DNA of 64,000 bases from an uncultured Pseudomonadota bacterium (GTDB lineage Bacteria; Desulfobacterota; Binatia; Binatales; Binataceae), in contig CAVWXK010000002.1 in NCBI GenBank assembly GCA_963759165.1, positions 320,231-384,230 of the forward strand. The letters are read 5' to 3'. Made by a program: the position numbers and the translations under genes. Below the pieces are notes generated by a model. It saw nothing but the letters and a program-made list of their open reading frames with translations, was not told the DNA's origin and made no database searches. Below, one piece after another: positions 1,738-49,017 of this stretch; the first letter of the stretch is position 1, and each line of letters opens with the position of its first letter.

Positions 1738-3447
1738 GTGGCGAAAATGCGCTCGGCAGAACGCTCGCTTCACAACGGCAACCGTGAATACCGGCCTCAC
1801 TTCTCAGGATTCATAAGGCGCGGGGACAAGGCGAGGCTTGCGCGGTGGCTGGGTAGGGCTATCGCGGCCCTGCTGATCCTGGCTCTTTCGAGCGCAAGCG
1901 CGACGGCGGGCGAGACCGACGGTAAGGTGCTGACGCCGCGCAAGATCCTGGACAGGCAATGCGCCGGATGCCATCGCAAGCTTCCCGATGGCGGCTACTT
2001 GCGGATCAGCCGGATACGCGGAGTCCCGGAAGCGTGGGACATGACGATAATCCGGATGCGTCGGGTCCACCACGCCGGAATTTCTCCGGCGGAGCAGGCG
2101 CAACTGGTTAAGTACCTCGCCGATTCGCAGGGGTTGGCGCCCGAAGAAGCCGCGCCCTACCGCTACATCCTCGAAAGGCGCCCCAACTACATCGAGCAAA
2201 TCCCGAATGAACAGATCGGCCTGGTCTGCGGCTCGTGTCACAGCTTCGCGCGGGTGGCTTTGGAAAGGCGTCCGGCGGATGAGTGGTTGAAACTGGCGAA
2301 TTTCCATCTCGGCCAGTTTCCCAGCCTCGAGTACCAATCGCGCCTGCGCTCGGTCGAGTGGTGGAAAATCGCGAGCACGCAGATGCCATCGGAGCTTGAA
2401 AAACGATTTCCGTTTGAGAGCGCGGCTTGGAAGCGATGGCGCGAGCACAAGAGCCGGGATCTGTCGGGCGAATGGCGCGTGGCCGGTCACGAACCCGGCA
2501 CCGGCGATTATCGCGGTTCGCTCACCATCGCGAAAGCCGACGGCGACGACCGCTACAACGTGCGGTGGAGTCTGACCTTTGCGGACGGCAAGCACATGGG
2601 AGGTGACGGCGCCGCGATCCTCTACACCGGTTTCGAATGGCGGGCTTCCGCGACGCTCGAGGGCAAGCCGGTCCGGCAGGTTTTTGCTGTAGCGCCCGAC
2701 GGCGCATCGATGGCGGGGCGGTGGTTTTACACCGAAACCGACGAGCGCGGCGGCGAGATACGCGCGGTGCGGGTCAAGCCAGGCGCCTCCAGGGTGCTCG
2801 CCGTCGAGCCTTCATCGCTACGTGCCGGGGGGAAGGCGCGGCTGACAATCGTCGGCGTCAACCTGAGCGGCGACATACGGCTGGGCGACGGAATCAAAGT
2901 CGTCGAGAGCGTGAGCAGCGGGCCGAGTGAGATGGTCGTGATCGCCCAAGCGGATGCAAATGCTGCCGACGGGATACGCGACGTCTCGGTCGGCAGCGCA
3001 AGCGGTAAGTCGCTGCTCACCGTGTATCACCGGCTGGACTCGGTGCGCATCGAGCCCGACTACGCAATCGCGCGTGTCGGCGGCAACGGCGGGCCGATTC
3101 CGCCGGTCACGGCGCAATTCGAGGCGGTCGGATATCTGAATGGACCCGATGGCAAACCTGGTACCGCCGACGACATCCGCGTGGGCGTGGTTGCGGCGAA
3201 GTGGTCGGTCGTTCCCTTCGACGACACGGCGGCTGAAATGCAGGATGTCAAATTCGCCGGACGGATGGATACCAACGGGCTGTTTACCCCGGCAGGGGCT
3301 GGACCGAATCCCCGGCGGCGTTTTGGTACCAACAACACCGGCAATCTCAAGGTGTTCGCGAGCGTGGAAGACCAGCACAAACCGCTGAACGGGACCGCTC
3401 AACTGATCGTCACCGTGCAGCGTTGGATCGATCCGCCGCTCAGGTAG
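1738..3447 (+). CDS. qhpA: Quinohemoprotein amine dehydrogenase alpha subunit (di-haem cytochrome c)
   Basis: 569 aa with a signal-like segment (AIAALLILALSSASATA) and two CxxCH motifs (CAGCH, CGSCH). The blocks VKYLADSQGLAPEE and FHLGQFPSLEYQ are as I recall them from Paracoccus QhpA. First gene of the qhp-ordered operon. Start uncertain (GTG 1738 or ATG 1747). Confidence 0.8.
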   Translation: MAKMRSAERSLHNGNREYRPHFSGFIRRGDKARLARWLGRAIAALLILALSSASATAGETDGKVLTPRKILDRQCAGCHRKLPDGGYLRISRIRGVPEAWDMTIIRMRRVHHAGISPAEQAQLVKYLADSQGLAPEEAAPYRYILERRPNYIEQIPNEQIGLVCGSCHSFARVALERRPADEWLKLANFHLGQFPSLEYQSRLRSVEWWKIASTQMPSELEKRFPFESAAWKRWREHKSRDLSGEWRVAGHEPGTGDYRGSLTIAKADGDDRYNVRWSLTFADGKHMGGDGAAILYTGFEWRASATLEGKPVRQVFAVAPDGASMAGRWFYTETDERGGEIRAVRVKPGASRVLAVEPSSLRAGGKARLTIVGVNLSGDIRLGDGIKVVESVSSGPSEMVVIAQADANAADGIRDVSVGSASGKSLLTVYHRLDSVRIEPDYAIARVGGNGGPIPPVTAQFEAVGYLNGPDGKPGTADDIRVGVVAAKWSVVPFDDTAAEMQDVKFAGRMDTNGLFTPAGAGPNPRRRFGTNNTGNLKVFASVEDQHKPLNGTAQLIVTVQRWIDPPLR

Positions 3448-3499: not shown

Positions 3500-4946
3500 A
3501 TGGCCAAACTGCGACTGCTCGAGCGAAATTTTCACGAGGTCCGGGTCGACGGACGCCGCGTCCTCTTCCACGTTCCGAGCGCCGGACTATTCGAGACGGA
3601 CGAGACGACCGGTCCGATCATCGATCTGCTTCGCGAGCGCAAGGAACTCGCACCAGAAGAGCTTGCTTCGAACCTCGACGCGGGCGCGCCGTTTCACGAG
3701 GCGCTCGCCGAGTTGCGGGCGCTCGGAATCGTAGGCGGCGAATCGGCCGATCCGAAGCTCGACCAAAACCGCGTCGCGATCCGGCGTTTTCCGCTGAGCA
3801 CGATGGTGCTCAATGTGACAACCGGGTGCAACCTCAGCTGCACCTACTGTTACAAGGAGGATCTCGACACGCCCGCGGATGCGAGGCGGATGGATTTTGA
3901 GACGGCTCGCAAGAGCGTCGAGCTGTTGCTGAGCGAGGGCGAAGGGCGCTCGCGCCTCGGGGTCGTGTTCTTTGGCGGCGAACCGCTGACCAACCTTCCG
4001 CTCATACGCCAGGTGGTCGATTATGCCGAGCGGCGATGCGGCGAGACTCGGCAAACAGCCCGATTTCTCCCTGACCACTAACGCGCTCCTGCTCACCGAG
4101 GAGGTCGTCAATTATCTCGATGGGCACCGGTTCGGGATCACGGTCAGCATCGACGGCCCCAGGGCTGTCCACGATCGCAATCGGATGACGGTCGGGGGCG
4201 CCGGAACCTACGATACGGTCGCGAAGAATGCTCGCATGCTGCTCGAACGCTATCGGTCGAAGCCGGTCGCCGCTCGCGTCACCCTCGCCGCCGGTGTCTC
4301 CGATGTGGAAACGATTTTCGACCATCTCAAGGATGAGCTGGGCTTCGGGGAGGTCGGATTCGCTCCGGTCACCGCCGATCAGGACGCGCGGTTCGGACTC
4401 GAAGAGGAGGAACTCGCGCGGGTATTCCAGGGAATGAAGCGGCTCGGCGAGCGCTACGAGCATGCCGCTCTAAGCGGCCGGTATATCGGCTTCTCCAACC
4501 TGCACCACCTGATCGGCGATCTCCATCACGGTACCCGCAGACTTTTGCCGTGCGGCGCCGGAGTCGCGCTCCTGGCGGTCGACCACGAGGGCAAACTCAA
4601 TCTTTGCCACCGCTTCACCGGCTCCGATCTGCCGACCTTCGGCGATGTCGAGAATGGGATCGACAAATCCGGATTGGGCGCGTTTCTGGATCAGGCGCGC
4701 GCTCTCTCAGGCCGCTGGTGCGCGCAATGTCATATTCGCTCGCTTTGCGGCGGCGGTTGCTATCACGAGCGCTACCAGCGTTACGGCGATCCGCTTCATC
4801 CTTCCTATCACTACTGCGAATTACTGCGTGAATGGATCGACTTCGGAATCACGACGTACAGCAGGATTCTGGCGCGTAATCCCGGCTTCTTCGAACGGCA
4901 TCTGGAGCCCGGGCGTTACGCGGATCAAAGAGGTGTACTGCCATGA
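3500..4946 (+). pseudogene. qhpD: Radical SAM/SPASM thioether-forming maturase QhpD, split by a +1 frame change near 4031..4046
   Basis: ORF 3500..4081 carries CNLSCTYCY (CxxxCxxC). ORF 4023..4946 carries the rest of the barrel plus a Cys-rich SPASM tail (CAQCHIRSLCGGGCYH). The two halves join as ...VVDYAERR/AARLGKQPDFSLTTNALLL if one nucleotide is skipped. The stop overlaps the qhpC start (ATGA). Confidence 0.75.
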
Positions 4947-5269
4947 AGCACCTGAAGCCACTGAACAAGAGCGCGCAGGCGATTGACGATGCCGCGGCGG
5001 CGGGGCGGCTGGAGGAAGTGCGTACCATGCAGGCCAAGGTCGTGGCTGGATGCTCGACGGTGTTCGACCCCGGATGGGAGGTCGACGCGTTCGGCGGGGT
5101 CTCCTCGCTGTGCCAGCCCATGGAGGCGGACCTTTATGGGTGTGCCGACCCGTGTTGGTGGCCGGCGCAGGTGCCCGACACAATGAACAGTTATCCGCAG
5201 TTCAACGCCGGCAGCCCTTCGGCCGCGCGCGACTGGCGCAATCTCCAGCAGGTTTACCCCAAAAAATGA
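4943..5269 (+). CDS. qhpC: QHNDH gamma subunit precursor (CTQ-bearing, triple-thioether RiPP-like small subunit)
   Basis: 108 aa: a ~30 aa leader, then the core [44 protein letters not shown]. Numbering from the first Cys as 7 gives C7/E16, C27/D33, C41/D49 and C37/W43, exactly the spacing of the known cross-link and CTQ residues. Confidence 0.9.
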
Positions 5270-5314
5270 GAGCCGACGCCGGTGAGGGCCGAGCTTGTTA
5301 AGCGGAGCGCAACC

Positions 5315-6424
5315 ATGAACAGAACGGCGATCCTCAAAACCTGGGCGATGGCCGCCGTCGCGGCGATCCTGCCCCTGATACTCCCGATCCACGCGACCGC
5401 CAAGGAATACCTCATCACCGGCACCAAGCCCAACCTGTTGTTCCTGATCGATCTGCAAGCTCGCAAAGTCGTGCGTCAATACAAGATCCCGAAGGACGGT
5501 CCGCCCTTCTCAATCTCCGTCTCGCCGGACGGCAAGATCGCCTACGTGGTGACGAATCATTGGGGTACGGTGTCGGGAATCGATCTGGCTAGCGGCAATG
5601 AACTGTTCCGCGCGGAGCTGAAAGAGGGGCAGGAACTGGTGAAGTCGCTCGGCGGTATAACGCTCAGCCGTGACGGCAGGGAACTCTTCGTGATGGAGTC
5701 GGTCAGCAAGCTCCTCCCCGGAGAATACCAGGTCCAGCCGTCGCGGGTCGCGGTGTACCGCACTGACGCCGGGCTTCGGGCGAAGCCGGTGCGGACCTTC
5801 AACACTCCGCGCCGGATCGCAGTGCTGGCGCCATCGACCGACGGGAAAATCATTTACGGCCTGGGCTGGGACTTGTACGCATTCGACGCGGCCACGGGAA
5901 AGCTGCTCGACACCCGGAAATTCTTCAACTGGGATCGGCCCAACAGCAGCCGGCCCGACCTTCTCAACTTCTGGCCGATGTACGAGCAAAGCGAGATTTA
6001 CGCGGCCCCGTACTACTATTCACGAACCGACATTCCCCAGAACAACCCGGATTCCCAAAAGACCGGCATGCTGATGCTCGATCTGCGGAGCGGAAAGATG
6101 AGCCTGGTCGATTTCGAAACCACTTCCGCGAGCATCTTTTCGGCGGTGGTGAACCCGAAGAATCCAAAGGAAGTGTTCGGAGTCTATGTCACGCTCAGCC
6201 GGATCGACGCGGGTGATTCGCCCCGGCTCGAAAAGCGCGTCTTCCTCGACCATTCATACTACGCGATTGATATCTCGGCCGACGGAAGCGAATGCTATTT
6301 GGGCGGCGCCATGAATGATGTCGCCGTGTATTCAACGAATACCATGAAAAAACTCGCCGATATAAGGCTTCCGGGCGGCGGTGATATGGCCTTGTCGGTA
6401 ATGCGTATTGTGCATCGGCCGTGA
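5315..6424 (+). CDS. qhpB: QHNDH beta subunit (beta-propeller)
   Basis: Signal peptide MNRTAILKTWAMAAVAAILPLILPIHATA. Repeated propeller-like blades (SVSPDGKIAYVV, TLSRDGRELFV, PSTDGKIIYGL, ISADGSECYLGG). Operon position after qhpC. GGAG ribosome-binding site before ATG 5315; the track ORF starts at GTG 5282. Confidence 0.8.
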   Translation: MNRTAILKTWAMAAVAAILPLILPIHATAKEYLITGTKPNLLFLIDLQARKVVRQYKIPKDGPPFSISVSPDGKIAYVVTNHWGTVSGIDLASGNELFRAELKEGQELVKSLGGITLSRDGRELFVMESVSKLLPGEYQVQPSRVAVYRTDAGLRAKPVRTFNTPRRIAVLAPSTDGKIIYGLGWDLYAFDAATGKLLDTRKFFNWDRPNSSRPDLLNFWPMYEQSEIYAAPYYYSRTDIPQNNPDSQKTGMLMLDLRSGKMSLVDFETTSASIFSAVVNPKNPKEVFGVYVTLSRIDAGDSPRLEKRVFLDHSYYAIDISADGSECYLGGAMNDVAVYSTNTMKKLADIRLPGGGDMALSVMRIVHRP

Positions 6425-6470: not shown

Positions 6471-8192
6471 ATGAGGGATGACCGGCAAGAGCCGCGTTTC
6501 CCGATCGGGCCGTCAACTCTGGGATGGCTCGGCGGCTTCGTTCGCCCTCATCGCTGGCGGGTCGCGGGAGTGCTGTGCCTGTCGCTGCTCAGCACGGCTT
6601 TCGTTCTGGCCCAGCCCTACGTCACCAAGCTTCTTATCGATCGCGGTCTTCTCGCGCGTCGCATGGACATGGTCGTGATGCTTTGCGGCATAATGCTCGT
6701 GGTCGCGGTGGTCGCGACCGTGCTCAGCGGCATCAACGGCCTGCTCTACACCGATCTCTCGGCGCGCGTCCTGTTCGCGATGCGCGAGGCGGTTTACCGG
6801 CACTTGATGACATTGCCGCCCACCTTCTATGCCCGGATGAGCGGCGGCGATCTGATGGCGCGGCTGGACGGCGACGTGAGCGAGATCCAGCGCTTTTGCG
6901 TCGATTCGGTGCTGGCGGGCGTCAACGGCGTCGCGGCGCTGATCGTGACGGTCGGTTTGCTGGTTTCGCTGAGCTGGCGTCTGTCGCTGCTCGCGTTGGT
7001 GCTGTTGCCCGCCGAGGCGCTTTTTCTGCGCGCGATGAGGCCGCGGGTCGAGCGGCATACGCGGCGTCTGCGTGAGCGCGCAAGCGAGCTTGCGGGTTTT
7101 TTCTTCGAGACCCTGCCCGCGGTGAAGTTCGTGCAGTCGGTCGGCGCCGAGGAGTTCGAGGCTGGCCGTCTCCACGCGCTCAACAAATCCTACCTCCGTG
7201 AGCTGCTCAAGCTGCAGACCGTGAATTTTTTCACGGGAGCGGTGCCCGGACTGCTGACCTCGGTCAGCGGCGCGGTGGTCTTCGTAGCGGGCGGGTATCT
7301 GGTGATCGGCGGCCGACTCACGCTGGGAAGCCTGGTCGCTTTCTATGCATATCTCGCCCGCGCAACCGGACCGGTGCAAACCCTGCTCGGTCTCTATGTT
7401 GCCGTGCAGCGCGCGCAGGTCAGCGTCGCGCGGGTAAGGGAATTGACCCGCGCGGAGCCCGCGGTACGCAGCGTCGCCAAGCCGGTTCAATTGCCCCGCG
7501 ACACCAAGGGCGAGATCAGGATCGAAGGCGTCAGTTTCGCATACGGCGACGGCGCGCCGCGGGTGCTTTCCAGCGCTGATATGTTCATACCGGCGGGAAG
7601 CAAGCTCGGCGTTATCGGTCCTTCGGGAGTGGGCAAAAGCACGCTCATCGATCTTCTTCAGCGGCATTTCGATCCCGTCGCGGGACGGATCCTCCTCGAC
7701 GGAATCGATTTACGGGTTCTCAACCTGACCGAGCTCAGGCGGCGCGTCACGGTCGTGGCGCAGGATACCGTTCTCTTTTCGGGTTCCATCATTGAGAATA
7801 TTCGTTACGCCGCCCCCACCGCCGACGACGCGGCGGTGCGCCGGGCGGCGGAGCGCGCACGAGTCGACGAGTTCGTCCATTTGTTTCCCCTCGGCTACCA
7901 AACCCAAGTGGGCGCGCGCGGCATCGCTCTGTCCGGCGGCCAGCGCCAGCGGATAGCCATCGCGCGGGCGCTGATCCAGGATCCTCTCGTTCTGGTCCTC
8001 GACGAGGCTACTTCCGCAATCGATCTCGAAACCGAAGCTTGGATCAGCGATGAGATCGATCGGTTGTTTCCGGACCGAACGCGAATCGTTGTCACACACC
8101 GGCCGCAGACTCTCGCGAATGCCGAAATCATCTATCGGATTGTCGATGGCCGAATCGTGCTTGAGCGCGCGATCAGAGGCGCGGTTGCGTGA
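6471..8192 (+). CDS. qhpF: ABC efflux transporter, fused permease and ATPase (QhpF-type)
   Basis: 573 aa with an N-terminal 6-TM exporter domain, Walker A GPSGVGKST, signature LSGGQRQR and Walker B LVLDEATS. Sits in the qhp operon. Confidence 0.75.
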   Translation: MRDDRQEPRFPIGPSTLGWLGGFVRPHRWRVAGVLCLSLLSTAFVLAQPYVTKLLIDRGLLARRMDMVVMLCGIMLVVAVVATVLSGINGLLYTDLSARVLFAMREAVYRHLMTLPPTFYARMSGGDLMARLDGDVSEIQRFCVDSVLAGVNGVAALIVTVGLLVSLSWRLSLLALVLLPAEALFLRAMRPRVERHTRRLRERASELAGFFFETLPAVKFVQSVGAEEFEAGRLHALNKSYLRELLKLQTVNFFTGAVPGLLTSVSGAVVFVAGGYLVIGGRLTLGSLVAFYAYLARATGPVQTLLGLYVAVQRAQVSVARVRELTRAEPAVRSVAKPVQLPRDTKGEIRIEGVSFAYGDGAPRVLSSADMFIPAGSKLGVIGPSGVGKSTLIDLLQRHFDPVAGRILLDGIDLRVLNLTELRRRVTVVAQDTVLFSGSIIENIRYAAPTADDAAVRRAAERARVDEFVHLFPLGYQTQVGARGIALSGGQRQRIAIARALIQDPLVLVLDEATSAIDLETEAWISDEIDRLFPDRTRIVVTHRPQTLANAEIIYRIVDGRIVLERAIRGAVA

Positions 8193-8212: not shown

Positions 8213-8935
8213 GTGAAAGGGACGGTTCGAATAGGGCTGCTGGATAGCGGAGCGGGGGTCGCGCTCACTGAACGGATGCTGGCACGCTCGCGTTTCGAAC
8301 TCGGCCGCGATGGACAGCTTGTCGAGTCGTCCCCGATCGTGGGTCGCGATGGCCATGGCAGTGCGCTCGCCGGCATCATCGCGGCGCTCGCGCCGCAAAC
8401 CGGGTTCCTCGACGCGCAGGTGTTCGACCCGCGCGGAGTGTCATCGCCCGCAGCGGTGGCCGCGGGGCTGGACTGGATGGTCGGCAATGATGCGCGCGTG
8501 GTCAACATGAGCTTTGGCCTGATCGAGGATCGCGAAGTGCTGCGCCTCGCGTGCGAACGGGCGCGCGAAGCGGGAGTCGTCATGTTCGCGGCAACGCCGG
8601 CGCGTGGACAACAGGTATTTCCCGCCGCATATCCCGGAATAATCCGGGTTAGCGCGGACGGACGCTGCGGCCGTCGCGAACTGTCGGTCCTCGACGGCGG
8701 TGCGGCTGATTTCGGCGCCTGTCCCTTTCCGCTGGAGCAATATTCCTACGGGCGCGTGATGGGAGGCGCCAGCTACGCCGTGGCCCATGCTGCCGGCATC
8801 GCGGCAGCCTGGCTCCTTGAGCGGCCGGGCGCGAACGCCAGCGAAATCCGTGGCTACCTGAACTCGATCGCGCGCTACTTCACCGCGGCAAGAACCGGAG
8901 TAAGCGTCGACAAACAGGCGACGGCGCGGCGTTAG
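8213..8935 (+). CDS. qhpE: Subtilisin-like serine protease (QhpE-type leader peptidase)
   Basis: 240 aa with the S8 triad context VRIGLLDSG (Asp), GHGSALAGIIA (His) and GGASYAVAHAAG (Ser). GGAGG ribosome-binding site 5 nt before GTG 8213. Confidence 0.75.
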   Translation: MKGTVRIGLLDSGAGVALTERMLARSRFELGRDGQLVESSPIVGRDGHGSALAGIIAALAPQTGFLDAQVFDPRGVSSPAAVAAGLDWMVGNDARVVNMSFGLIEDREVLRLACERAREAGVVMFAATPARGQQVFPAAYPGIIRVSADGRCGRRELSVLDGGAADFGACPFPLEQYSYGRVMGGASYAVAHAAGIAAAWLLERPGANASEIRGYLNSIARYFTAARTGVSVDKQATARR

Positions 8936-8947
8936 GCGGGAGCAGGC

Positions 8948-9907
8948 ATGGAGACTCCTTCTCGCAACGAAACAATCGCCGACGCATTCGCCGCGGCGGC
9001 AACGTCTCCGGAAGTGGCGATCGCATTCACCGATCCCGACCGGCTGGTTCGATTCATTTCCGCGAATTCCGCCGATCCGTCGGGCGAGCGGCTGGCGATG
9101 ATGGGCCTCGCGGGCGCGGGTCCCGGTGCTTTGGGAACCCAACGGGTATCGCGCGTTCATTTCGGAAATGAGTTTTGCGAGCGGCTGCTTCCGTCCCGCG
9201 CCGGGCTCGAGTCGGCCATAAAGTTGATTTCCGCCGCGGGCGTGGGCTTTTCGCTGGTTGCGCCCATGCTCACCGATGACGGGCTCGACACGACGCAGCA
9301 ATTGCTCGAGGCCCTGCCCGATGACAGCGAGGTGGCGGCGAATGACTGGGGGCTGATGCGCCTCGTGCGGCGCCGATTTCCGGGACTGCGTCTGAGCGCG
9401 GGACGGTTGCTGTGCAGGATGCTCAAGGAGCCGCGCGCTCCGTCGGCTAAGTACATGGAACTCGGCGGGCACGGATTTATGAACCCGGGATTCGAGGGGC
9501 TGTTACGAAGTTTCGGAGTGAGCCGCCTTGAGATCGACGTTCCGCCGTTCGCGACGGTGGAGGATCTTCGGGCCCCCAACCACCGGCTGTCGGTCCACGT
9601 GCCCTTCGGGTTCACGACGGTCGGCCGGATTTGCCGGATCGGCTCACTGCATCAACCGCCCACGCGCAAGTTTGCCACCGGCCACAATTGCGCCCGCGAG
9701 TGTCTGACTTATGTGACCGCGATGGAGTCGCCGCGCGAACCGCGTGGTTCCGACATCCGTGTTTTCCAGCGCGGCAACACCATCTTTTATCGCCACACGC
9801 CCGCGATGAGCGCGGTCGTCGCTGACGCGATCGTGGCGGGTATCGTCGATCGCGTGATCGTTTCAGGAGACTGGAATGAAGCTGGTAGCGCCAATCTCAG
9901 CGCCTGA
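8948..9907 (+). CDS. U32-family-like protein, UbiV-like partner (putative Fe-S)
   Basis: 319 aa. Blocks VHFGNEFCERL, EVAANDWGLMRLVRRRFPGLRLSAG and GRIC-x18-C-x3-C resemble the UbiV layout (one early Cys plus a late C...CxxxC). Starts 13 nt after the qhpE stop, with a GGGAG ribosome-binding site. Confidence 0.55.
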   Translation: METPSRNETIADAFAAAATSPEVAIAFTDPDRLVRFISANSADPSGERLAMMGLAGAGPGALGTQRVSRVHFGNEFCERLLPSRAGLESAIKLISAAGVGFSLVAPMLTDDGLDTTQQLLEALPDDSEVAANDWGLMRLVRRRFPGLRLSAGRLLCRMLKEPRAPSAKYMELGGHGFMNPGFEGLLRSFGVSRLEIDVPPFATVEDLRAPNHRLSVHVPFGFTTVGRICRIGSLHQPPTRKFATGHNCARECLTYVTAMESPREPRGSDIRVFQRGNTIFYRHTPAMSAVVADAIVAGIVDRVIVSGDWNEAGSANLSA

Positions 9908-10865
9908 CGATGTGGCTGTTCTGGCCGGCGCCGGGGCGGACGAATTTTACTGCGGCGTGGTGCCTCGCGAATGGGAATCGCGGTTTGGGCGCTCCACGCT
10001 GAATCGCCGCATGGGAGGAAACCTCGGGAGTTTCGAGGATCTTGAGCGTGCGGTTCAGATGTCACACCATCTGGGCAGGCGGATCTCGGTCGCCGTGAAT
10101 GCCCAAACGTATTCGAACGATCGATGGGACGATCTCCTCACCCTGCTCGCGCGGATCGGCGACAGCGGCGCCGACGCCGTCATCGTTGGAGATCTGGGGC
10201 TTCTCGCCACGCTTTCCAGGTGCCGCCCCCCGGTCCGGATTCATCTGAGTTCCGTGGCCTCCTGCCACAATTCCGAGACCGCGGCGCTCGCCGCCGAACT
10301 GGGCGCCGAGCGCGTGATCCTGCCGCGTCAGGTGACGCTTGCGGAAATCGAAAGGATCGGCCGCCAGGTTCCGGGCCTGGAGTTGGAAGCCTTCATTCTC
10401 AATGACGGATGCGTGTTCGAGGAAGGCTCCTGCCACACGCTTCATTTGCCGCCCGCGCTCGGCGGTCCAATATGTATCGACCGGTTCGGATATGACTATC
10501 GCCGCGATGACGGAAAGCCGCTTTCCGCCGCGGAGCGCGAACGGTTCGATGCCAACGATCAGGCGTATGAGAAATGGCTGTGGTACACGTTCTCCTGTGG
10601 ATTCACCGTAACGGCTGAAGGACTTCCGCATGGGCCATGCGGCCTGTGCGCCATCGCCCGCCTTGAGCGGGCCGGCCTCGCGGCGGTGAAGATCGCGGGC
10701 CGCGACGGTCCGCTCGAGCGGCGCCTGCGCGGCGTCGAGATGGTACGATCGGTGCTCGATCGGGCCGCGAAAGAGCCGGGCGAAGAGGCCGTCGCCGCTT
10801 TTGCGCAGGGCTTGCGGAAAAATCCCGAACTCTGCATCAGCGGCTACATGTGCTATTATAGGTAA
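9876..10865 (+). CDS. Peptidase-U32-family protein, UbiU-like (putative Fe-S)
   Basis: 329 aa with the typical U32 N-terminus MKLVAPISAPDDVAVLAGAGADEFYCG, then GADAVIVGDLGLL, RIHLSS and RVILPRQVTLAEI. Cys cluster DGCVFEEGSCH...PICID...PCGLC, followed by AAVKIAGRD. Overlaps the previous ORF by 32 nt; AGGAG ribosome-binding site. Confidence 0.75.
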   Translation: MKLVAPISAPDDVAVLAGAGADEFYCGVVPREWESRFGRSTLNRRMGGNLGSFEDLERAVQMSHHLGRRISVAVNAQTYSNDRWDDLLTLLARIGDSGADAVIVGDLGLLATLSRCRPPVRIHLSSVASCHNSETAALAAELGAERVILPRQVTLAEIERIGRQVPGLELEAFILNDGCVFEEGSCHTLHLPPALGGPICIDRFGYDYRRDDGKPLSAAERERFDANDQAYEKWLWYTFSCGFTVTAEGLPHGPCGLCAIARLERAGLAAVKIAGRDGPLERRLRGVEMVRSVLDRAAKEPGEEAVAAFAQGLRKNPELCISGYMCYYR

Positions 10866-10872
10866 TTAGCTG

Positions 10873-11190
10873 TGCTCCGCAAAAATTCTTTACCGCGGTA
10901 TTAAGGGCTAAAAACCGAGCTGAAATTTACGAAGCTGTCGCTGGAGGTTGGGCGTGGCATTCTGCGATGCCATGTCCACGGGCAATGTTTGGCTGCGCTT
11001 GATTTCTGTGCTCTTGCTTCTGCTCCGAGATGCCGTCCGTTTCCTGTTACTGGGAACACGCTCGAGCGCGGCACTGAAGGCCGCCGGGGAAAGTGCGGGG
11101 TGGAGGCGTTTCAACAGTTGAAAACTCAAGAGCGAGAAGGCGTTGCCGCCTTGCACTTGACTACTGAGACGGTTGCTCCCGCTGATCCAG
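10873..11190 (+). mobile_element. 5' fragment of an rve-type IS of the same family (terminus plus decayed transposase N-terminus)
   Basis: tgtgctccgcaaaaattct at 10873 matches the inverted termini of the IS at 13744/14959 (tgtgctatgcaaaaattct, tgtcctccgcaaaaattgc). Downstream, MSTGNVWLRLISVLLLLLRDAVRFLLLGTRSSAALKAAGE parallels WLNLFADLLRFLVLGLRSKSSLAAEN of that copy. Confidence 0.55.
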
Positions 11191-11284
11191 AAACTACGTA
11201 GCGATTGGCGAGTGAAGAGAACGAGAAGATGAAAAGACGGAGAGTGGGCCAAATCTAAATATCAAAGTGGGCCAGACCGGATTG

Positions 11285-11598
11285 TCAAAAGCAAGGTCCG
11301 CCACAAATCGCTTGAGCTTGGCGTTCTCTTCGCGCAACTGCCTGAGCTCACGCAACTCGCTCAGGCCCAAGCCCGCGTACTTCTTCTTCCAAACGTAATA
11401 TGTGGCTTCGCTGATGCCGTGCTCACGGCAGATGTCGCTGATCCTCGTGCCGCCTTCCGCCTGGTGCAGCGCCCGCAGAATCTGCTCCTCCGTGTGACCC
11501 CGCTTCGACATCCTGGTCCTCCTTCCTCGCTCTCAGAGGACCACATCAATCGCCGATTCCTCAACTTATCGCTGTCCTAGTTTTCGGGTTTTGGGTCA
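11285..11598 (-). mobile_element. IS3-family left end with truncated OrfA
   Basis: ORF 11194..11511(-) reads MSKRGHTEEQILRALHQAEGGTRISDICREHGISEATYYVWKKKYAGLGLSELRELRQLREENAKLKRFVADL, a typical IS3/IS407-group OrfA. Homology ends ~11285 and there is no OrfB. A TGACCC... terminus lies at 11598. Confidence 0.75.
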
Positions 11599-12213: not shown

Positions 12214-13709
12214 ATGAAAGGTTCGGTTTCAAACCCGCCCCTTGTACTACTCACCGGCGCGACCGGCTACGTGGGCGGCCGTTTGCTGGGGGCGCTCCAT
12301 CACAAGGGAGTGCGCGTGCGATGCCTCGCACGGCGACCGGAGTATTTGCGGGCTCGCGGCGGCGCAAATGCCGAATTGATTCGCGGCGATGTGCTGGATC
12401 CGGGTAGTCTCAAATCCGCTTTCGAAGGCGTTTCGACCGCTTACTACCTGATCCATTCGATGGGGGCGACGGAATCCTTCGAAGAAAAAGATCGGCAGGG
12501 TGCGAGCAACTTCGCAGAAGCGGCGCGTGCCGCCGGAGTCCGTCGGATCATTTACCTTGGCGGCCTCGGCGACAACGGCGGCGACCTCTCGCCGCATCTG
12601 CGAAGCCGCCACGAGGTGGGCGAGGTACTGCGCCGGCGGGCGTACAAGTGATCGAGTTTCGTGCGTCGGTCATCATCGGGTCCGGCAGCTTGTCGTTTGA
12701 AATGGTCCGGGCGCTGGTTGAGCGACTGCCGATCATGATCACGCCCAAGTGGGTCGCGATAAAGTCTCAGCCAATCGCTATCGGCGACATGATCGATTAC
12801 CTGCTTGCGGCACTGAACCTCGAGGTCGAGGGCAACCCTATCTACGAAATCGGCGGCGCCGACATCGTCTCCTATGGGGACATCATGCGCGAGTATTCGC
12901 GCCAGCGTGGTCTGCGACGGCTGATGATTCCGGTGCCGGTCCTCACTCCGCGGCTCTCGAGCCTGTGGCTTGGGCTGGTGACGCCGCTTTATGCGCGAGT
13001 GGGCCGCATGCTGATCGACAGCATTATCCATCCGACGGTCGTGCGTGACGATGCCGCGCTGAAGAAGTTCTCGATTCGGCCGAAGGGATTGCGCGAAGCA
13101 ATAATGCTGGCGCTGCGCAACGAAGATATCGGTTACGGAGCGACGAAATGGTCCGATGCGCTGTCATCCGCGGGCGATCCGCGCGACTGGGGCGGCGTGA
13201 GATTCGGCAACCGCCTCGTCGATTCGCGCGTCGCGCATGTCGACGTACCGCCGGAGCGGGCGTTTGCACCGATTCGCCGAATCGGCGGTGCAACCGGTTG
13301 GTTTTACGCTAACTGGCTGTGGCGAGTGCGCGGAATGCTGGATTTGCTGGTTGGCGGAGTCGGGATGCGCCGGGGACGGCGCGATCCGGAAGTATTGGAA
13401 GTAGGTGACACGATCGACTGCTGGCGTGTCGAGACGTTTGTGCCGACGCGCCAACTTCGGCTCTCTAGCGAGATGCGTTTACCGGGACGGGCATGGCTCG
13501 ATTTCGAGGTCGAGTCCGACGGTTCGGGTTCCACCATTCGGCAAACAGCAATCTTCGACCCCATCGGACTTCCGGGACTTGCATACTGGTACGGGATCTA
13601 TCCGCTGCATCAGATCGTATTCGCCGGTATGTTGCGCGGAATCGCGCGCGCCGCAATCGCCACTGCCTCCGCGGAGCGGCTCTCTCAGCACCCGATGCAA
13701 GTGGATTGA
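12214..13709 (+). pseudogene. NmrA/SDR-type NAD(P)-binding protein fused to DUF2867, interrupted by a -1 frame change near 12631..12641
   Basis: ORF 12214..12651 has LLTGATGYVGGRL (Rossmann motif). ORF 12648..13709 continues IEFRASVIIGSGSLSFEMVR... and ends with a DUF2867-like domain. The halves join as GEVLRR/AGVQVIEFRAS if one G is added in the run cgccggcggg. Confidence 0.7.
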
Positions 13710-13743: not shown

Positions 13744-14959
13744 TGTGCTATGCAAAAATTCTGCGACACTCATGCAGCGTGCGCCATGAGGCGGTACTCA
13801 TGGTGAAGTCCGTTCAGGACGGAGCGAGCCACAATTCGGCTTGTTCGGTCGAAACGATGCCTATGGCGCTGCAAATCGCACGGGGAAATTTGGCGGCGGA
13901 TCGGGAAGTGCCTGGCCCCAAGGAAGAGTGTGGTCTGCCTCGGTTATAATGCGGCGACCACGACCATAGGGTTTTCCGAAGGTGCTCCTCCGTCAACGGG
14001 ACAATCCAATCCAGACACTCACGCCGTAGTGTCCCGATTAGCCTTTCGCAAAGCGAATTCGCTTTCGGGCTCCGAACTGGTGTTTTGATGACTTCAAGGC
14101 CGAGATCAGCCACGGAAACATCGAATCCAGTCGAAAAGATCGCGTCGCGGTCATGGATGATAAACCGGTACGCGTGGTCTGAAGGAATGGCCTCCCGCAG
14201 TTGTTGGAGGGTCCAGGCTGCGGTGGGATGGGCCGTCACATTGAGGTGAATAATCCGGCGTGAGCCATGTTCCATGACCACAAACAGATACAGAATCCGA
14301 AAAGTGGCGGTCACTACGACGCAGAAATCACAGGCGATGATGGCACGGGCGTGATTCTTGAGAAAGGTTGACCAACGTTGATCACCGCGAGGTTTCCCAG
14401 CCGGTGCGGCCGGCAAATTCGGCAAATACTTACGGATCGTGCGCGGCGACACGCGCAGACCGAGTTTCAGCAGCAACTCGTTTGCAATTCGCTCCTCGCC
14501 CCACGAGGGGTTCTCACAAGCCATCTTGCGGATCAGACGTTGGAGTTCCGGCGGAATCCGCGGCCGGCCGGATTGGCATTTCCAACGCCAGAAAAGTTGG
14601 AAGCCCTTGCGGTGCCAGCCGATGAAGGTTTTGGGCGTCACCCCACCAAGGCGTTTCGCCAATCGAACCAGCGACTGAGCCACACGAGAGTCAAGCGTGT
14701 TGGATTGTCGGTCCGTCGTGGCTTGATTTTGCGTTCTTGGTAGAAGGCGAGCTGCTTGCGTAAGAAGAGATTCTCGGCCGCGAGCGAGCTTTTAGATCGT
14801 AAGCCGAGGACCAGAAAGCGAAGGAGATCGGCGAACAGGTTAAGCCAACACAGCCAGGACTTCATGATGGACCGATGTCCTTTGTTGTCGACGTTCTCCC
14901 CTTAAATCGATCATAATTTCGCGCGGTTCAAGCTGAGGCGGCAATTTTTGCGGAGGACA
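13744..14959 (-). mobile_element. rve-type IS (copy 4) with recognisable inverted termini
   Basis: Termini are tgtgctatgcaaaaattctg (13744) and the reverse complement of ggcaatttttgcggaggaca (to 14959), which reads tgtcctccgcaaaaattgcc. They enclose the transposase ORFs. No clear target duplication seen. Confidence 0.75.
13814..14865 (-). pseudogene. rve-domain transposase, frameshifted in a G/C run (14641..14644)
   Basis: The N-terminal ORF 14638..14865 (...LVWLSRWFDWRNALVG-stop) and ORF 13814..14683 (...VTPKTFIGWHRKGFQLFWRWK...SPKANSLCERLIGTLRRE) join if GGGG is read as GGGGG. Confidence 0.8.
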
Positions 14960-15099: not shown

Positions 15100-18000
15100 C
15101 TACCGGCGCGCGCCTCCGACCGCAGGTCTGTCTTCGCCAGCCGTAGACGCGGGAACCCTTCCAGAGGGCTTCTCTAACGGCACCAGGCGCTGGCCGGTCA
15201 GCCGACGGATCACGGTATAGAAGACAGGGGTAAGGAACACTCCGAAGAATGTCACGCCGATCATGCCGAAGAACAGAACCGTGCCGAGAGCCTGTCTCAT
15301 TTCGGCGCCGGCGCCGGTGGCGATAATCAGCGGGATCACGCCGAAAATAAACGCGAAGCTCGTCATGAGGATCGGTCGCAGACGCAGACGTGCGGCTTCG
15401 ATCGCGGCCTCCGCCGCCTTCATGCCGCGGTTATGTTCCTGCTGCTGTTTGGCGAATTCGACGATCAGCACGGCGTTCTTCACACTCATTCCCGCCAGCA
15501 CCACGAAGCCGATCTGGGTGAAGATGTTGTTGTCCAGGTGCCGGCCCCAGACCGCGGTAATGCCGCACAGCAGGCACATGGGGACGATCAGGATGATCGC
15601 CGTCGAAAGCGCGAAGCTCTCGTATTCCGCCGAGTGCGTGAGCCACACAAACAGCATGCAGAGCGGGAATATAAGGAACGCCAGGCCGCCGGCGGCCTTC
15701 TCCTGGAAGGCCAAATCCGTCCACTCGTAACTGTATTGTTTGGGGAGCTCCCGATCGGCGACCTCTTCCATAGCGGCGAGGGCCTGGCCGCTGCTGTAGC
15801 CGGGTGCGGAGGCGCCGATGATGCTGGCGGAGCTGTACAAATCGTATCTTTGGATCCGGTCCGGACCGACGATATCCTTCAGCTCGGATATCGCGCCCAG
15901 CGGAACCATCTGACCCGCCGCATTGCGGGTCTTGAGCATGGCCACCTGTGCGACGGTGGCGCGGAACGGAGCGTCGGCCTGCGCCATCACGTGCCACGTG
16001 CGACCTAGATAGTTGAAATCGTTGATGTATAAGCCTCCGAGGTAGACCTGCAGCGCCTGGAAAACGTCGGTGACCGCCACATTCTGCTTCTTGGCTTTGA
16101 CGCGATCCACGTTGACGTAAATCTGCGGGACGCTGGCGCGGAAGGTGGAGAACAACATGCTCAACTCGGGGCGACTGCGGGCGGCATCGATCAGATGCCG
16201 GGTAGCCTGCTCGATCTGCTGCGGCGTGGCGCCGCCGGAACGGTCTTCAACCTGCATCGTGAAGCCGCCGGCGTTGCCGATCCCGTTGACTGCCGGCGGG
16301 AGCAGCACAATCGCCTGGCCTTCTTCCACCTTGCTGAATTGTTGATAGAGCCGGTTCGCGATCGCCGCGGCGGTCATATCGGGCTTGCCCGCGCGCTCCC
16401 TGAACGGCGTTAAGTGCAGGAATACCAGCCCGGCCGCGGATGAGTTGGAGCGGGTCAGGATGGAGAACCCGGAAACCGCGAACGCGTCCTCAATTCCCCT
16501 GGTCTTCAACGCCAGGTCAGACAGTCGCGTCACCGCCGCGTCGGTCCGCTCGATCGACGATGCGTCGGGCATCTGAACGTTCACGATGACATAGCCCTGG
16601 TCCTGCGTCGGAATGAAACCGGTAGGCACGATTCCGAACATACCGTACGCCAGAAGCACCAGGCCGAAATAAACAATCAGCGCGACGCCCGCGTAGCGGA
16701 CCACGTGGCGCAGCGACTTGGCGTACCACCGGTTGGTCAGATCGAAGCCCTTGTTGAACAGCCGAAAAAACCAGCCGAGCGTGAAATCGAGCACCCTCGT
16801 CAGCCAGTCCTGTTTGGCGTCGTGGGGCCTGAGCAGCAGCGCGGAAAGCGCCGGACTGAGGGTCAGCGAGTTAAAAGCCGAGAGCAGGGTCGAGAACGCG
16901 ATCGTCAGCGCGAACTGCTGATAGAACCGGCCGGTGATACCCGGAATGAAGGCCACGGGAATGAACACCGCGGAGAGGCCGAAAGCGATGGCGATGACGG
17001 CCGGCGTAACCTCGTCCATCGCGCGAAACGCCGCGTCGCGCGGGCTCAGGCCCACCTCGAGCCAACGCTGAACGTTCTCGACCACGACGATCGCGTCGTC
17101 CACCACGATCCCGATGGCCAGCACCAGCCCGAACAGCGAAAGCATGTTCAGGGAGAATCCGACAAGCCACATGACCGCGAAGGTGCCGATCAGCGACACC
17201 GGGATCGCCAGGATCGGCACCAGCGAAGCTCGCCAGTTCTGCAGGAACACGAGCACCACCAGCGCCACCAAACTGACGGCTATAAGCAGCGTCTTGACCA
17301 GGTCCTTGATGCTTTCACGGACAAAAGGCGTGGTGTCGTGCGCGACGGAGTAATCAATGCCTGGGGGAAAGCGCTTCTTGAGCTCCTTCATCTTGGCGTA
17401 GATCACGTCGGCGGTGTTGATCGCATTGGTGCCCGGTAGCTGGAAAACCGCCAGCCCGACGGTGGGATGTCCGTCGTAATTAACGGTGGTGCTGTAGTCG
17501 GCGGCGCCGAGCTCGACGCGGCCGACCTCTTTCAGCCTCGTGATGCGACCGTCGCTGCCCACCTTGACCACGATGTCGCCGAACTCGGACGGATCGGTGA
17601 GCCGGCCCTGCGCATTCAACGTGTACTGGAAAGCGGCGGTCTGCCTGGGGAGCGGCGGCCCGCCGACCATTCCCGCCGCCACCTGGATGTTTTGCTCTTT
17701 GACCGCGTTGACGACATCGCCCGCGGTCATGCTTCGCACCGCGAGCTTGCCGGGATCGAGCCACAACCGCATCGAATAGTCGCGTACGCCGAAGATCGTG
17801 ATGTCGCCGACGCCCGGCAGCCGGGCAATCTCGTCCTTGAGCTCCAGGGTCACGTAGTTGCTGATAAACAACGCATCGTGCGACCCGTCGGGCGAGTATA
17901 AGGCGATCGCCAGCGTAATGTCCGGCGACGCCTTCTTCACCGTGATTCCCAGCTGCTGCACCTCCACCGGAAGTTGCGGCTGGGCGATAGCCACCCGGTT

Positions 18001-18330
18001 CTGCACCTGCACCTGGGCCACATCGAGGTTCGTGCCGACCTTGAACGTCACCGTCAGGTTCAGGTTCCCGGTGTTGGTCGACTGGCTGGACATGTAAAGC
18101 ATATTCTCCACGCCGTTAATCTGTTCTTCGATCGGCGTGGCGACGGTCTTCGCGACGGTTTCGGCGTTGGCGCCCGGGTAGGCGGCGCTGACGGTAACGG
18201 TCGGCGGCGCGATCTGCGGGTATTGGGCGATCGGCAGAGTGAACATCGCGATCGAGCCAGCGATGATCGCGACAATCGAAAGGACGATCGCGAAGACCGG
18301 CCGGTCAATAAAAAAATGTGCGATCTTCAC
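15100..18330 (-). CDS. RND (HAE1, AcrB/MexB-like) multidrug efflux permease
   Basis: 1076 aa starting MKIAHFFIDRPVFAIVLSIV, with a 12-TM layout, two large periplasmic loops and the block VVDDAIVVVENV. Confidence 0.95.
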   Translation of the reverse strand: MKIAHFFIDRPVFAIVLSIVAIIAGSIAMFTLPIAQYPQIAPPTVTVSAAYPGANAETVAKTVATPIEEQINGVENMLYMSSQSTNTGNLNLTVTFKVGTNLDVAQVQVQNRVAIAQPQLPVEVQQLGITVKKASPDITLAIALYSPDGSHDALFISNYVTLELKDEIARLPGVGDITIFGVRDYSMRLWLDPGKLAVRSMTAGDVVNAVKEQNIQVAAGMVGGPPLPRQTAAFQYTLNAQGRLTDPSEFGDIVVKVGSDGRITRLKEVGRVELGAADYSTTVNYDGHPTVGLAVFQLPGTNAINTADVIYAKMKELKKRFPPGIDYSVAHDTTPFVRESIKDLVKTLLIAVSLVALVVLVFLQNWRASLVPILAIPVSLIGTFAVMWLVGFSLNMLSLFGLVLAIGIVVDDAIVVVENVQRWLEVGLSPRDAAFRAMDEVTPAVIAIAFGLSAVFIPVAFIPGITGRFYQQFALTIAFSTLLSAFNSLTLSPALSALLLRPHDAKQDWLTRVLDFTLGWFFRLFNKGFDLTNRWYAKSLRHVVRYAGVALIVYFGLVLLAYGMFGIVPTGFIPTQDQGYVIVNVQMPDASSIERTDAAVTRLSDLALKTRGIEDAFAVSGFSILTRSNSSAAGLVFLHLTPFRERAGKPDMTAAAIANRLYQQFSKVEEGQAIVLLPPAVNGIGNAGGFTMQVEDRSGGATPQQIEQATRHLIDAARSRPELSMLFSTFRASVPQIYVNVDRVKAKKQNVAVTDVFQALQVYLGGLYINDFNYLGRTWHVMAQADAPFRATVAQVAMLKTRNAAGQMVPLGAISELKDIVGPDRIQRYDLYSSASIIGASAPGYSSGQALAAMEEVADRELPKQYSYEWTDLAFQEKAAGGLAFLIFPLCMLFVWLTHSAEYESFALSTAIILIVPMCLLCGITAVWGRHLDNNIFTQIGFVVLAGMSVKNAVLIVEFAKQQQEHNRGMKAAEAAIEAARLRLRPILMTSFAFIFGVIPLIIATGAGAEMRQALGTVLFFGMIGVTFFGVFLTPVFYTVIRRLTGQRLVPLEKPSGRVPASTAGEDRPAVGGARR

Positions 18331-19595
18331 CGAGGCGCTTCCGCTGACGGTCGCGAAACGGACTGAGCGGCGGTCCGCATCCCGGGCGGCGCCTGCGTAG
18401 TCGGCGGCCCGGCCGCGATGCTCTCCAGCGCGTCCAGCGATTCGGTGGGAACCGGAACCTCATGCGGGTCGACTTTCGCGCCCGGTCTCGCCGACAGCAT
18501 TCCGTTGACGATAACCCTCTCGCCCGGTTTCAGCCCGTCAGTAATCGATCGCAGAGAGCCGAATAGCGGGCCCAATCTGACCGGCCGCTGCCCCACGACG
18601 TCGTCGGTTCCGACAATCAGGAGGTATCGCTCGTTCTGGTCGGTGTTCACCGCCGCATCCGGAATCAGCAGCGCCTGGTAACGTCCACTGGCCGGGATAC
18701 GCGTGAGGGCGAAGAGTCCGGGGGTCAGCAAGGTCGTGGGGTTGGGGAACACGCAACGGATCTGCACCGTTCCGGTATTCACGTCTACCTGATTGTCAAC
18801 AAAGTCGATCACGCCTTGGCGCGGAAAATTCGTCTCGTCTTCAAGTTGCAGAAAACAGGCGACGTTTGCTCCCGCAAGGTTGGCCTTCTTCTCCTGCAGG
18901 GCCAGCTCCCGATAACGCAGGGCCGCGCCTTCGGGCACATTGATGTAGCAATAGAGCGGATCGATCGAGACGATGGTGGTCAGGGCCGTGGCCTGTCCGG
19001 AGCCGCTGTTGACCAGGTTCCCTGCCGTCACGTTCATGCGGCTGACGCGGCCCGTGATCGGAGCCCTCACCTCAGTCCATTCGAGATTAAGCCGGGAGGT
19101 CTCCAGGGACGCCTCGGCAGCATCCAGCGACGCGTCCGCCTGCTCGTAAGAGGCTTTGGTGCTGTCATAATCCGCCCGTGCAATCACTCGGGCCTTAAGG
19201 AGCACGGTGGAGCGCTCGAAGTCAGCCTTCGTTCGGTCCGCCATCGCCTTGGCCTGGGCCACTGCGGCTTTCTTGTTGTCGAGGTCGGCCTGGAACGGGC
19301 GCGGGTCGATCTTGAACAGCAAGTCGCCCGCGTGGACGATCGCGCCCTCCTGGAAAGGGGCCTCTTCGATAAGTCCGCTGACCCGCGCATTAACAGTGAC
19401 CGTTTTGGGAGACGAGAGATATCCGCTGTATTGATCCCAGCGCACCACATCCCGCTGAAGCGGTTGGCTGACCGTGACCGTCGGCGGCGGCGGCGCCTGC
19501 GGCGCAATCGCTCGTTTGCAGCCCGGAAGAAGCGCCAATACCAATCCTGCGAGCGCCGTCGCCCGTTGAGAGCGGCGCAACCGAATACGATTCAT
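18327..19595 (-). CDS. RND periplasmic adaptor (membrane fusion protein) lipoprotein
   Basis: 422 aa with lipobox LLPGC and coiled-coil hairpin plus barrel segments typical of AcrA/MexA. 4-nt overlap with the RND gene. Confidence 0.9.
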   Translation of the reverse strand: MNRIRLRRSQRATALAGLVLALLPGCKRAIAPQAPPPPTVTVSQPLQRDVVRWDQYSGYLSSPKTVTVNARVSGLIEEAPFQEGAIVHAGDLLFKIDPRPFQADLDNKKAAVAQAKAMADRTKADFERSTVLLKARVIARADYDSTKASYEQADASLDAAEASLETSRLNLEWTEVRAPITGRVSRMNVTAGNLVNSGSGQATALTTIVSIDPLYCYINVPEGAALRYRELALQEKKANLAGANVACFLQLEDETNFPRQGVIDFVDNQVDVNTGTVQIRCVFPNPTTLLTPGLFALTRIPASGRYQALLIPDAAVNTDQNERYLLIVGTDDVVGQRPVRLGPLFGSLRSITDGLKPGERVIVNGMLSARPGAKVDPHEVPVPTESLDALESIAAGPPTTQAPPGMRTAAQSVSRPSAEAPR

Positions 19596-37285: not shown

Positions 37286-37598
37286 AAGCCTGCTGCGTTT
37301 GGCCAGAAGAGGCCCAACGGACTTCTGAGAGCTAACGCCTTGCGGAAGGAACCGAGCCGCCGTGCTGCGGTTGGAAAATTCGAACCGGCCTGCTAGGTGA
37401 ACTTTTGGCGTATGCTCTACCGCGCCGCACAAATCGCGTAGGTGCTGAAGCAGCAACGAAACAGGTTCTGCTTTGGTGAAAGAATATCGCATTTGAATTG
37501 CGGAGGTCTTGGCTCGCCGGGAACTGAGCCTCTGCTCCATGGGAGTACGGCGAACCAGACCTAACCAACGTTCGGCGCGGGACTCGGGGAGGAAAACC

Positions 37599-46747: not shown

Positions 46748-46819
46748 ACCGCCGCGTTTAGCTTTCCAAATTCCCGCCCGATGCCGCGCACAACCGCACA
46801 ACAAACGCAGGAGAATGGT

Positions 46820-48994: not shown

Positions 48995-49017
48995 ACGCCA
49001 CGAATCAAGGAGCAGCC

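Follow-up and report, generated by a model that had tools for sequence, protein, structure and literature searches.

We describe here a pair of overlapping genes that closes a quinohemoprotein amine dehydrogenase (QHNDH) operon in an uncultured Binataceae bacterium. The stretch of DNA analysed, called the window below, comprises 64,000 nt of contig CAVWXK010000002.1, and the two open reading frames (ORFs) are named after their first positions in it, ORF 8948 and ORF 9876. Together they most likely encode a cytoplasmic UbiV-UbiU-like heterodimer that would be dedicated to QHNDH maturation. Our current hypothesis, to which we give a probability of roughly 55%, is that the pair is an O2-independent hydroxylase of the Trp residue that becomes the cysteine tryptophylquinone (CTQ) cofactor. 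The sole known CTQ oxygenation enzyme, the flavin adenine dinucleotide (FAD) monooxygenase QhpG, requires O2, yet functional QHNDH has been reported from Aromatoleum grown without O2. The observations given below establish what the genes are, which Cys they conserve, that the two are strictly paired, and that they recur within qhp operons, from which qhpG is often absent. From these we infer Fe-S binding, formation of the heterodimer and, for the reaction, its substrate, chemistry and oxygen donor.

The pair and the operon to which it belongs are arranged in the window as follows.

1738 to 3447, + strand: qhpA, QHNDH alpha subunit (dihaem); TIGR03908, 669.8 bits against a cut-off of 274, and four Pfam QHNDH alpha domains.
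3500 to 4946, + strand: qhpD, radical S-adenosylmethionine (SAM)/SPASM thioether maturase with a broken frame; TIGR03906.
4943 to 5269, + strand: qhpC, gamma subunit with the CTQ precursor Trp (CWWPAQ); NF037958, 162.5 bits; PF08992.
5282 to 6424, + strand: qhpB, beta-propeller subunit; TIGR03907, 386.7 bits against a cut-off of 223.
6471 to 8192, + strand: qhpF-type ATP-binding cassette (ABC) exporter; PF00664 and PF00005.
8213 to 8935, + strand: qhpE, subtilisin-like leader protease; NF049966, 213.5 bits against a cut-off of 165.
8948 to 9907, + strand: putative UbiV-like partner protein of 319 aa, without a family model; Cys pattern, hhalign and AlphaFold2 (AF2) model.
9876 to 10865, + strand: predicted U32-family Fe-S protein of 329 aa, of a distinct subfamily nearest UbiU; PF01136, 129.3 bits.

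The upstream genes were named by Pfam and NCBIfam profile scans, in which qhpA, qhpB, qhpC and qhpE passed the NCBIfam equivalog cut-offs. The exporter is also present, and its position is conserved in 42 related loci. A first-pass annotation of this DNA, made from the letters alone, had read the order as qhpA-D-C-B, ABC exporter, qhpE and then the two ORFs, and the scans bore this out. Its finer details of the junctions were upheld as well: ORF 8948 starts 13 nt past the last base (8935) of the qhpE stop, ORF 9876 (9876-10865) overlaps ORF 8948 (8948-9907) by 32 nt, and Shine-Dalgarno-like sequences are present for both (GGGAG upstream of ORF 8948; AGGAG 7-11 nt before the ATG of ORF 9876). 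Inspection of the two sequences revealed an obvious signal peptide in neither. The operon had also been said to lack a monooxygenase of the qhpG type. In agreement with this, tblastn with five QhpG queries, one of which reaches 535 bits with the NCBIfam model for QhpG (NF049967), returned zero matches in the 64-kb window at E ≤ 1e-3.

By its profile scores, ORF 9876 is a distinct U32 subfamily that is closest to UbiU. It matches PF01136 over residues 87-318 with an E of 1.8e-37 (gathering threshold 22.4 bits), which confirms the earlier reading of it as a U32 protein, and every motif that had been quoted for it (MKLVAP, AGADEFYCG, ADAVIVGDLGLL, RIHLSS and RVILPRQV) was found. On the UbiU equivalog model NF047963 it reached 89.8 bits against a cut-off of 440, covering only profile positions 1-177 of 331, and on the TrhP model 71.9 bits against a cut-off of 534; UbiU is the best-scoring characterised relative. 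Three residues, C179, C186 and C200, are present in 77/77 homologues and align with UbiU C169, C176 and C193. Four further Cys (C255, C258, C320 and C326, at 10638-10853 of the window) are nearly invariant and absent from UbiU; the motifs here are GPCGLC and a C-x5-C near the C-terminus. These four residues could form a second metal site that is specific to the subfamily.

The partner protein, ORF 8948, carries a Cys layout that is reminiscent of UbiV. The motifs FGNEFCERL, ANDWGLMRL and GRIC-x18-C-x3-C, noted in the first reading, are all present. Across 111 sequences of its family C77, C229 and C248 never vary and C252 hardly does, which gives the pattern CX151CX18CX3C. In a collinear alignment, of low confidence in the C-terminal part, these residues fall on UbiV C39, C180, C193 and C197, the experimentally defined [4Fe-4S] ligands of the motif CXnCX12CX3C (PMC6747719). 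Profile-profile comparison by hhalign aligned the ORF 8948 family with the family of its U32 partners at 89% probability (E 2.2e-6, 91 columns, N-terminal half), and no significance was reached when hhalign compared ORF 8948 with E. coli UbiV or UbiU as single sequences. The AF2 model of ORF 8948 is a beta/alpha barrel with a predicted local distance difference test score (pLDDT) of 86 and a predicted template modelling score (pTM) of 0.86. Foldseek with this model returned mostly generic beta/alpha (TIM) barrels, from which U32 was not separable; the sole solved U32 structure, 5d88, ranked 26 (E 2.7e-3), with the highest TMt (0.52) and the joint-highest TMq (0.42). A sequence search of the PDB with the family profile gave noise only.

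At the level of family models, the idea that U32 profiles would recognise ORF 8948 failed for all Pfam and NCBIfam U32 models. When 111 family members were scanned against Pfam and NCBIfam, nothing meaningful was found, and only 1/111 touched PF01136, at an E of 0.21; E. coli UbiV, by comparison, scored 38 bits. The suggestion of a UbiV-like protein is supported by the one-plus-three Cys layout, the alignment to UbiV and the hhalign match to the U32 partners; a match to a U32 hidden Markov model is missing. Because the family comprises 113 clusters at 90% identity and 290 relatives among 185,579 species genomes, ORF 8948 is not a chance ORF. We conclude from these comparisons that it is probably a very divergent UbiV-like protein that lies outside every current model. 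NCBIfam holds models for QhpE and QhpG and none for either member of the pair. ORF 8948 thus marks a conserved protein family that has been overlooked by the present Pfam and NCBIfam models.

The closest characterised system is UbiU-UbiV (E. coli YhbU/YhbV), a heterodimer in which each subunit holds one [4Fe-4S] cluster, which is needed for O2-independent hydroxylation (PMC6747719) and for which prephenate is the oxygen donor (PMC10990095). Like UbiU and UbiV, the two proteins described here are encoded by adjacent, translationally coupled genes and occur in proteobacteria that respire without O2. The U32 subunit carries CX6CX13-16C as UbiU does, and ORF 8948, like UbiV, is the shorter and more divergent subunit, with one-plus-three Cys of which the first lies far upstream. 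There are differences as well. Both proteins fall far below the equivalog cut-offs (89.8 versus 440 bits for UbiU, and no match for UbiV), the UbiV-like gene comes first, ORF 8948 has CX18CX3C in place of CX12CX3C, ORF 9876 has its four extra Cys, and the pair belongs to qhp operons and not to ubi loci. Alongside the pair, a UbiT-like ORF was found neither in the window nor among the conserved neighbour families. The presumed substrate would be a protein-bound Trp instead of a prenylated phenol.

An alphaproteobacterial contig without qhp genes (locus L011) carries a canonical ubiT-ubiU-ubiV operon (70-2518, - strand) divergently beside the pair. All three genes are above their cut-offs, with UbiU at 516.6 bits. 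Because this canonical operon lies right beside the pair, the pair is a paralogous system and not UbiUV itself. An ordinary UbiU/UbiV identity for the two ORFs is ruled out by the scores together with the separate L011 operon. TrhP and RlhA, which are required for 5-hydroxyuridine (ho5U) in tRNA and 5-hydroxycytidine (ho5C) in rRNA, share with ORF 9876 the U32 domain and the conserved Cys motif. Their chemistry is an O2-independent, prephenate-linked hydroxylation of an aromatic ring, and we propose that the pair resembles them in this. Unlike the pair, TrhP and RlhA act on RNA, and no divergent partner was found for them here.

The association of the two genes with each other and with qhp operons was followed across genomes. 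A scan of 185,579 genomes, one per species, yielded the 290 relatives of ORF 8948; loci were fetched for 80 of the 290, and 46 of these 80 have full 10-kb flanks. In 79/80 loci a U32 gene lies adjacent, co-oriented and directly after the ORF 8948 homologue, the exception being a contig end. Genes of the qhp set were found in the flanks of 51/80 loci, and of 37/46 where the full 10-kb flanks were available. The pair directly follows qhpE in 26 loci, lies between qhpB and the exporter in two (L073 and L079) and is upstream of qhpA in another two (L010 and L037). In a neighbour-joining tree of the U32 subunit, rooted on true UbiU, which is itself on a long branch, the qhp-linked state occurs throughout, the deepest branches included, and unlinked cases are nested among linked ones. 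The predicted co-occurrence of a U32 pair with qhp operons was thus found to be strong and to span deep branches, and the pair is very likely dedicated to QHNDH operons. Consistent with one pair for each operon, two contigs of Thauera aminoaromatica S2 hold a pair each: one (L059) lies beside qhpG-qhpADCB, and the flank of the other (L054) holds only a qhpA fragment.

Two further features of these neighbourhoods should be noted. A CcmF/NrfE-like cytochrome c assembly protein of ∼720 aa adjoins the pair in 13 loci from Thauera, Aromatoleum and Magnetospirillum (for example L064 11735-13900, L055 11645-13933 and L038 7938-9863), and its role may be that of a haem lyase dedicated to QhpA. Distant relatives of ORF 8948 were observed next to a U32 gene on a Clostridium butyricum megaplasmid, beside an iron ABC transporter (L082 8404-10845); in a deltaproteobacterial metagenome-assembled genome (MAG), beside genes for a methyltransferase, a B12-radical-SAM protein and a GMC oxidoreductase (L089 10001-11859); and beside succinate dehydrogenase on a metagenome contig, with the gene order reversed (L090 8952-10798). 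In U32 enzymes generally, the ORF 8948 family may act as a hidden second subunit.

The hosts of the pair are mostly denitrifiers, microaerophiles or anaerobes. They include Aromatoleum (A. anaerobium among them), Thauera, Azoarcus, Magnetospirillum, Phaeospirillum, Telmatospirillum, Sedimenticola, Motiliproteus, Binataceae, an Acidobacteriota MAG and Desulforhabdus sp. TSK. The last of these belongs to the Syntrophobacteraceae, in a genus that we take to consist of sulfate reducers; its operon exceeds the cut-offs for QH_alpha, QH_gamma and QhpE, and CWWPAQ is retained in its QhpC. CTQ-containing enzymes were reportedly purified from denitrifying cultures in a 2019 paper on Aromatoleum QHNDH. 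At 37509-39902 the window also carries the gene for a quinol-dependent nitric oxide reductase (qNOR), a NorB with an N-terminal cytochrome c-like domain, which fits a low-oxygen or denitrifying lifestyle of the host.

The relation of the pair to qhpG was examined in the 39 loci that contain both the pair and a complete qhpADCB set. Within 10 kb, qhpG was present in 15 of these loci and absent from 24. The first-pass annotation had placed the pair simply where qhpG should be; the 15 operons that hold both do not agree with this, and they exclude the pair as a strict replacement for qhpG. Since the two co-occur in this way, the pair is not a simple substitute for QhpG. Two Sedimenticola congeners (L019 and L031) have operons that differ solely in the presence of qhpG, with the order A-D-C-B-F-E-G-pair in S. 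hydrogenitrophicus and A-D-C-B-F-E-pair in S. selenatireducens. On 27 plasmids that carry qhpA, a qhpG homologue lies beside qhpA in 26/27 and an ORF 8948 homologue occurs in 0/27; because two genera dominate these plasmids, the contrast between 26/27 pair-less operons and 15/39 pair-bearing ones is indicative and not a clean statistic.

Two plasmids show other arrangements. That of Azoarcus sp. KH32C carries a qhpG-like gene (L088 11932-13266) beside phenylphosphate carboxylase genes, far from qhp, whose product is 54% identical to Cupriavidus QhpG. That of Novosphingobium sp. RL4 (L087, plasmid positions 774739-794328) carries a divergent qhp-like operon (A, D, C, exporter and E) from whose surrounding 9 kb both qhpG and the U32 pair are missing, and the only match to a FAD enzyme is a weak one ∼700 kb away.

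Based on these findings, we propose the following scheme. QhpD would put the thioether cross-links into QhpC, after which the pair would add two oxygens to the conserved Trp of the cross-linked QhpC, in the cytoplasm and without O2. By analogy with UbiU-UbiV, prephenate would serve as the oxygen donor. The modified subunit would then be exported via QhpF and its leader cleaved by QhpE. One [4Fe-4S] cluster is expected per subunit, with C77, C229, C248 and C252 as the proposed ligands in ORF 8948 and C179, C186, C200 and a fourth Cys as those in ORF 9876. The pair would be the anaerobic counterpart of the aerobic QhpG, and operons with both would possess oxic and anoxic routes, much as UbiI/H/F and UbiU/V do for ubiquinone. 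To our knowledge, prephenate-dependent hydroxylation chemistry has so far not been reconstituted in vitro.

The scheme gives the pair the job of QhpG, namely the dihydroxylation of the CTQ-precursor Trp in cross-linked QhpC in the cytoplasm, and the two share the qhp operon neighbourhood. In fold and cofactor they are unrelated, QhpG being a FAD monooxygenase that takes both inserted oxygen atoms from O2 (PMC7876137). LodB and GoxB, accessory enzymes for CTQ in the LodA-like oxidases, also oxygenate Trp, as is proposed for the pair. Unlike the pair, they are O2-using flavoproteins, without relation to it in sequence or fold; QhpG is weakly similar to the LodB and GoxB models.

Several findings weigh against Trp hydroxylation by the pair. 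ORF 8948 gave zero Pfam or NCBIfam matches at E ≤ 0.1, the UbiV model NF047965 and PF01136 included, and its family profile matched a shallow UbiV alignment weakly (E 0.0056), where the UbiV profile is of low diversity because the UbiV search yielded only enterobacterial sequences of at least 85% identity. For ORF 9876 more than one residue could be the fourth Fe-S ligand, with C241 in 65/77 homologues and C255 and C258 in 76/77. In nine full-flank loci the pair has no qhp gene nearby, and distant relatives of ORF 8948 are U32-paired in contexts unrelated to qhp. The pair and qhpG occur together in 15/39 complete operons. Absence of qhpG refers to the 10 kb around each locus and to 64 kb in the window, and a qhpG that is missing from the operon is not necessarily missing from the genome, as the unlinked qhpG-like gene on the Azoarcus plasmid illustrates. 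The copy in this window is possibly inactive because its qhpD carries a frameshift and insertion sequences (ISs) flank the operon on both sides.

Could the pair serve QHNDH maturation at a step other than Trp hydroxylation? It might convert dihydroxy-Trp into the quinone by oxidation, make the Cys-Trp bond without O2, or relay electrons through its Fe-S clusters to QhpG or QhpD. Such a role would explain the operon linkage equally well and would suit the 15 operons in which qhpG and the pair are found together, and the role of the cluster in U32 proteins is itself unsettled. An Fe-S partner for QhpG is conceivable because no physiological reductant of its FAD has been found (PMC7876137). We nevertheless regard this group of roles as unlikely. 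In the 24 complete pair operons without qhpG, oxygen insertion would have to fall to some other enzyme, for which no further conserved candidate gene was seen; canonical operons function with QhpG and without the pair; and every characterised U32 Fe-S protein is tied to hydroxylation. Hydroxylation of a small molecule, such as an aromatic amine, an aldehyde intermediate or a quinone, by a pair that is merely co-regulated with amine catabolism appears more improbable still. An aldehyde dehydrogenase does adjoin the pair in many loci, and the nine loci away from qhp, the adjoining ubiT-U-V operon of L011 and the distant relatives with methyltransferase, radical SAM or succinate dehydrogenase genes as neighbours would all be accommodated. 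However, the pair mostly sits among maturation genes (after qhpE, or in the gap between qhpB and qhpF) and not among catabolic genes, host metabolisms are very different, from Binataceae to Desulforhabdus, no UbiT-like lipid carrier is found alongside it, and the nine unlinked copies share no common neighbour. That the two proteins are peptidases which process QhpC or another QHNDH subunit is hardly credible, even though ORF 9876 matches Peptidase_U32 and QhpC requires removal of its leader: the assigned leader protease QhpE is already in the operon, and conservation falls on Cys clusters, which are typical of Fe-S U32 oxidases. In addition, the nearest characterised relatives by score, UbiU and TrhP, are both hydroxylases.

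A different question is whether the operon of the window still functions. A single extra base near 4046, a point absent from the first-pass annotation, splits qhpD into ORFs 3500-4081 and 4023-4946, as judged against the intact orthologue from another Binataceae locus (L006), to which it aligns with one 1-nt gap. TIGR03906 positions 1-177 fall on the first ORF and positions 173-464 on the second, and the C-terminal part alone reaches 473 bits against a cut-off of 453. The operon also has IS features on both sides.

249 to 1268, + strand: IS transposase (rve_3 integrase core) upstream of the operon; PF13683 and PF13565; same family as the transposase at 13814-14683.
10871 to 10888, + strand: IS terminal repeat abutting the operon end, 18 nt, TGTGCTCCGCAAAAATTC; recurs at 13744 (+) and 14942 (-).

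The copies of the 18-mer at 13744 (+) and 14942 (inverted, -) bracket a transposase, and three matches of the 18-mer were obtained in 0/100 shuffles. An IS terminus right after the operon, as first described, is thus present, at a distance of 5 nt past the stop and not 7. In all, IS sequence surrounds the qhp operon at 249-1268, 10871-11511 and 13744-14959, with two rve_3 transposases and an IS3-type orfA remnant at 11194-11511 (- strand), and IS elements may have moved the operon as a block. At 12214-13709 lie an NAD(P)-binding/NmrA-like ORF (145 aa) and a DUF2867 ORF (353 aa) with a 4-nt overlap; the DUF2867 frame extends upstream of the junction, and the two resemble one gene with a second single-base frame error.

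The frameshift in qhpD, the transposases and termini on both sides and the second split gene at 12214-13709 would be in keeping with a decaying, IS-captured remnant, in which the pair would have no current function in this genome, whatever it does elsewhere. We consider this somewhat doubtful. The remaining genes are intact, with 76-93% protein identity to the intact L006 operon. Because a second single-base frame break lies 8 kb away, so that two occur within 10 kb of a metagenome-type contig, assembly error is an equally plausible cause. Regardless, decay would bear on this copy alone and not on the family. Other genes in the window encode an RND efflux pump and the membrane-fusion protein that goes with it (15100-19595), a hydantoinase A/B pair that is oxoprolinase- or acetone-carboxylase-like (46781-51252) and a large serine recombinase (58448-60136).

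A 2024 review names ubiquinone biosynthesis and RNA modification as the only known functions of U32 oxidases. Full-text searches, with subscription journals outside their scope, returned no literature that joins U32 with QHNDH, amine dehydrogenase or tryptophylquinone, and none that joins tryptophylquinone with prephenate. What is new here is a U32 subfamily and a new partner family, together with a new substrate class if Trp hydroxylation by the pair holds. We see an even chance that this Fe-S subfamily acts on a protein, as the first of the U32 hydroxylases to do so, and that it supplies both CTQ oxygens anaerobically, probably from prephenate. With a soluble protein substrate and a mass-spectrometric readout, the pair would offer a tractable system for prephenate-dependent hydroxylation. 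If Trp is indeed its substrate, an O2-independent route would explain active QHNDH in denitrifiers and sulfate reducers without O2, and a peptidyl amino acid would join ubiquinone precursors and RNA bases among the substrates of U32 hydroxylases. Protein-derived quinone cofactors would then have a dual oxic and anoxic biogenesis, as ubiquinone does.

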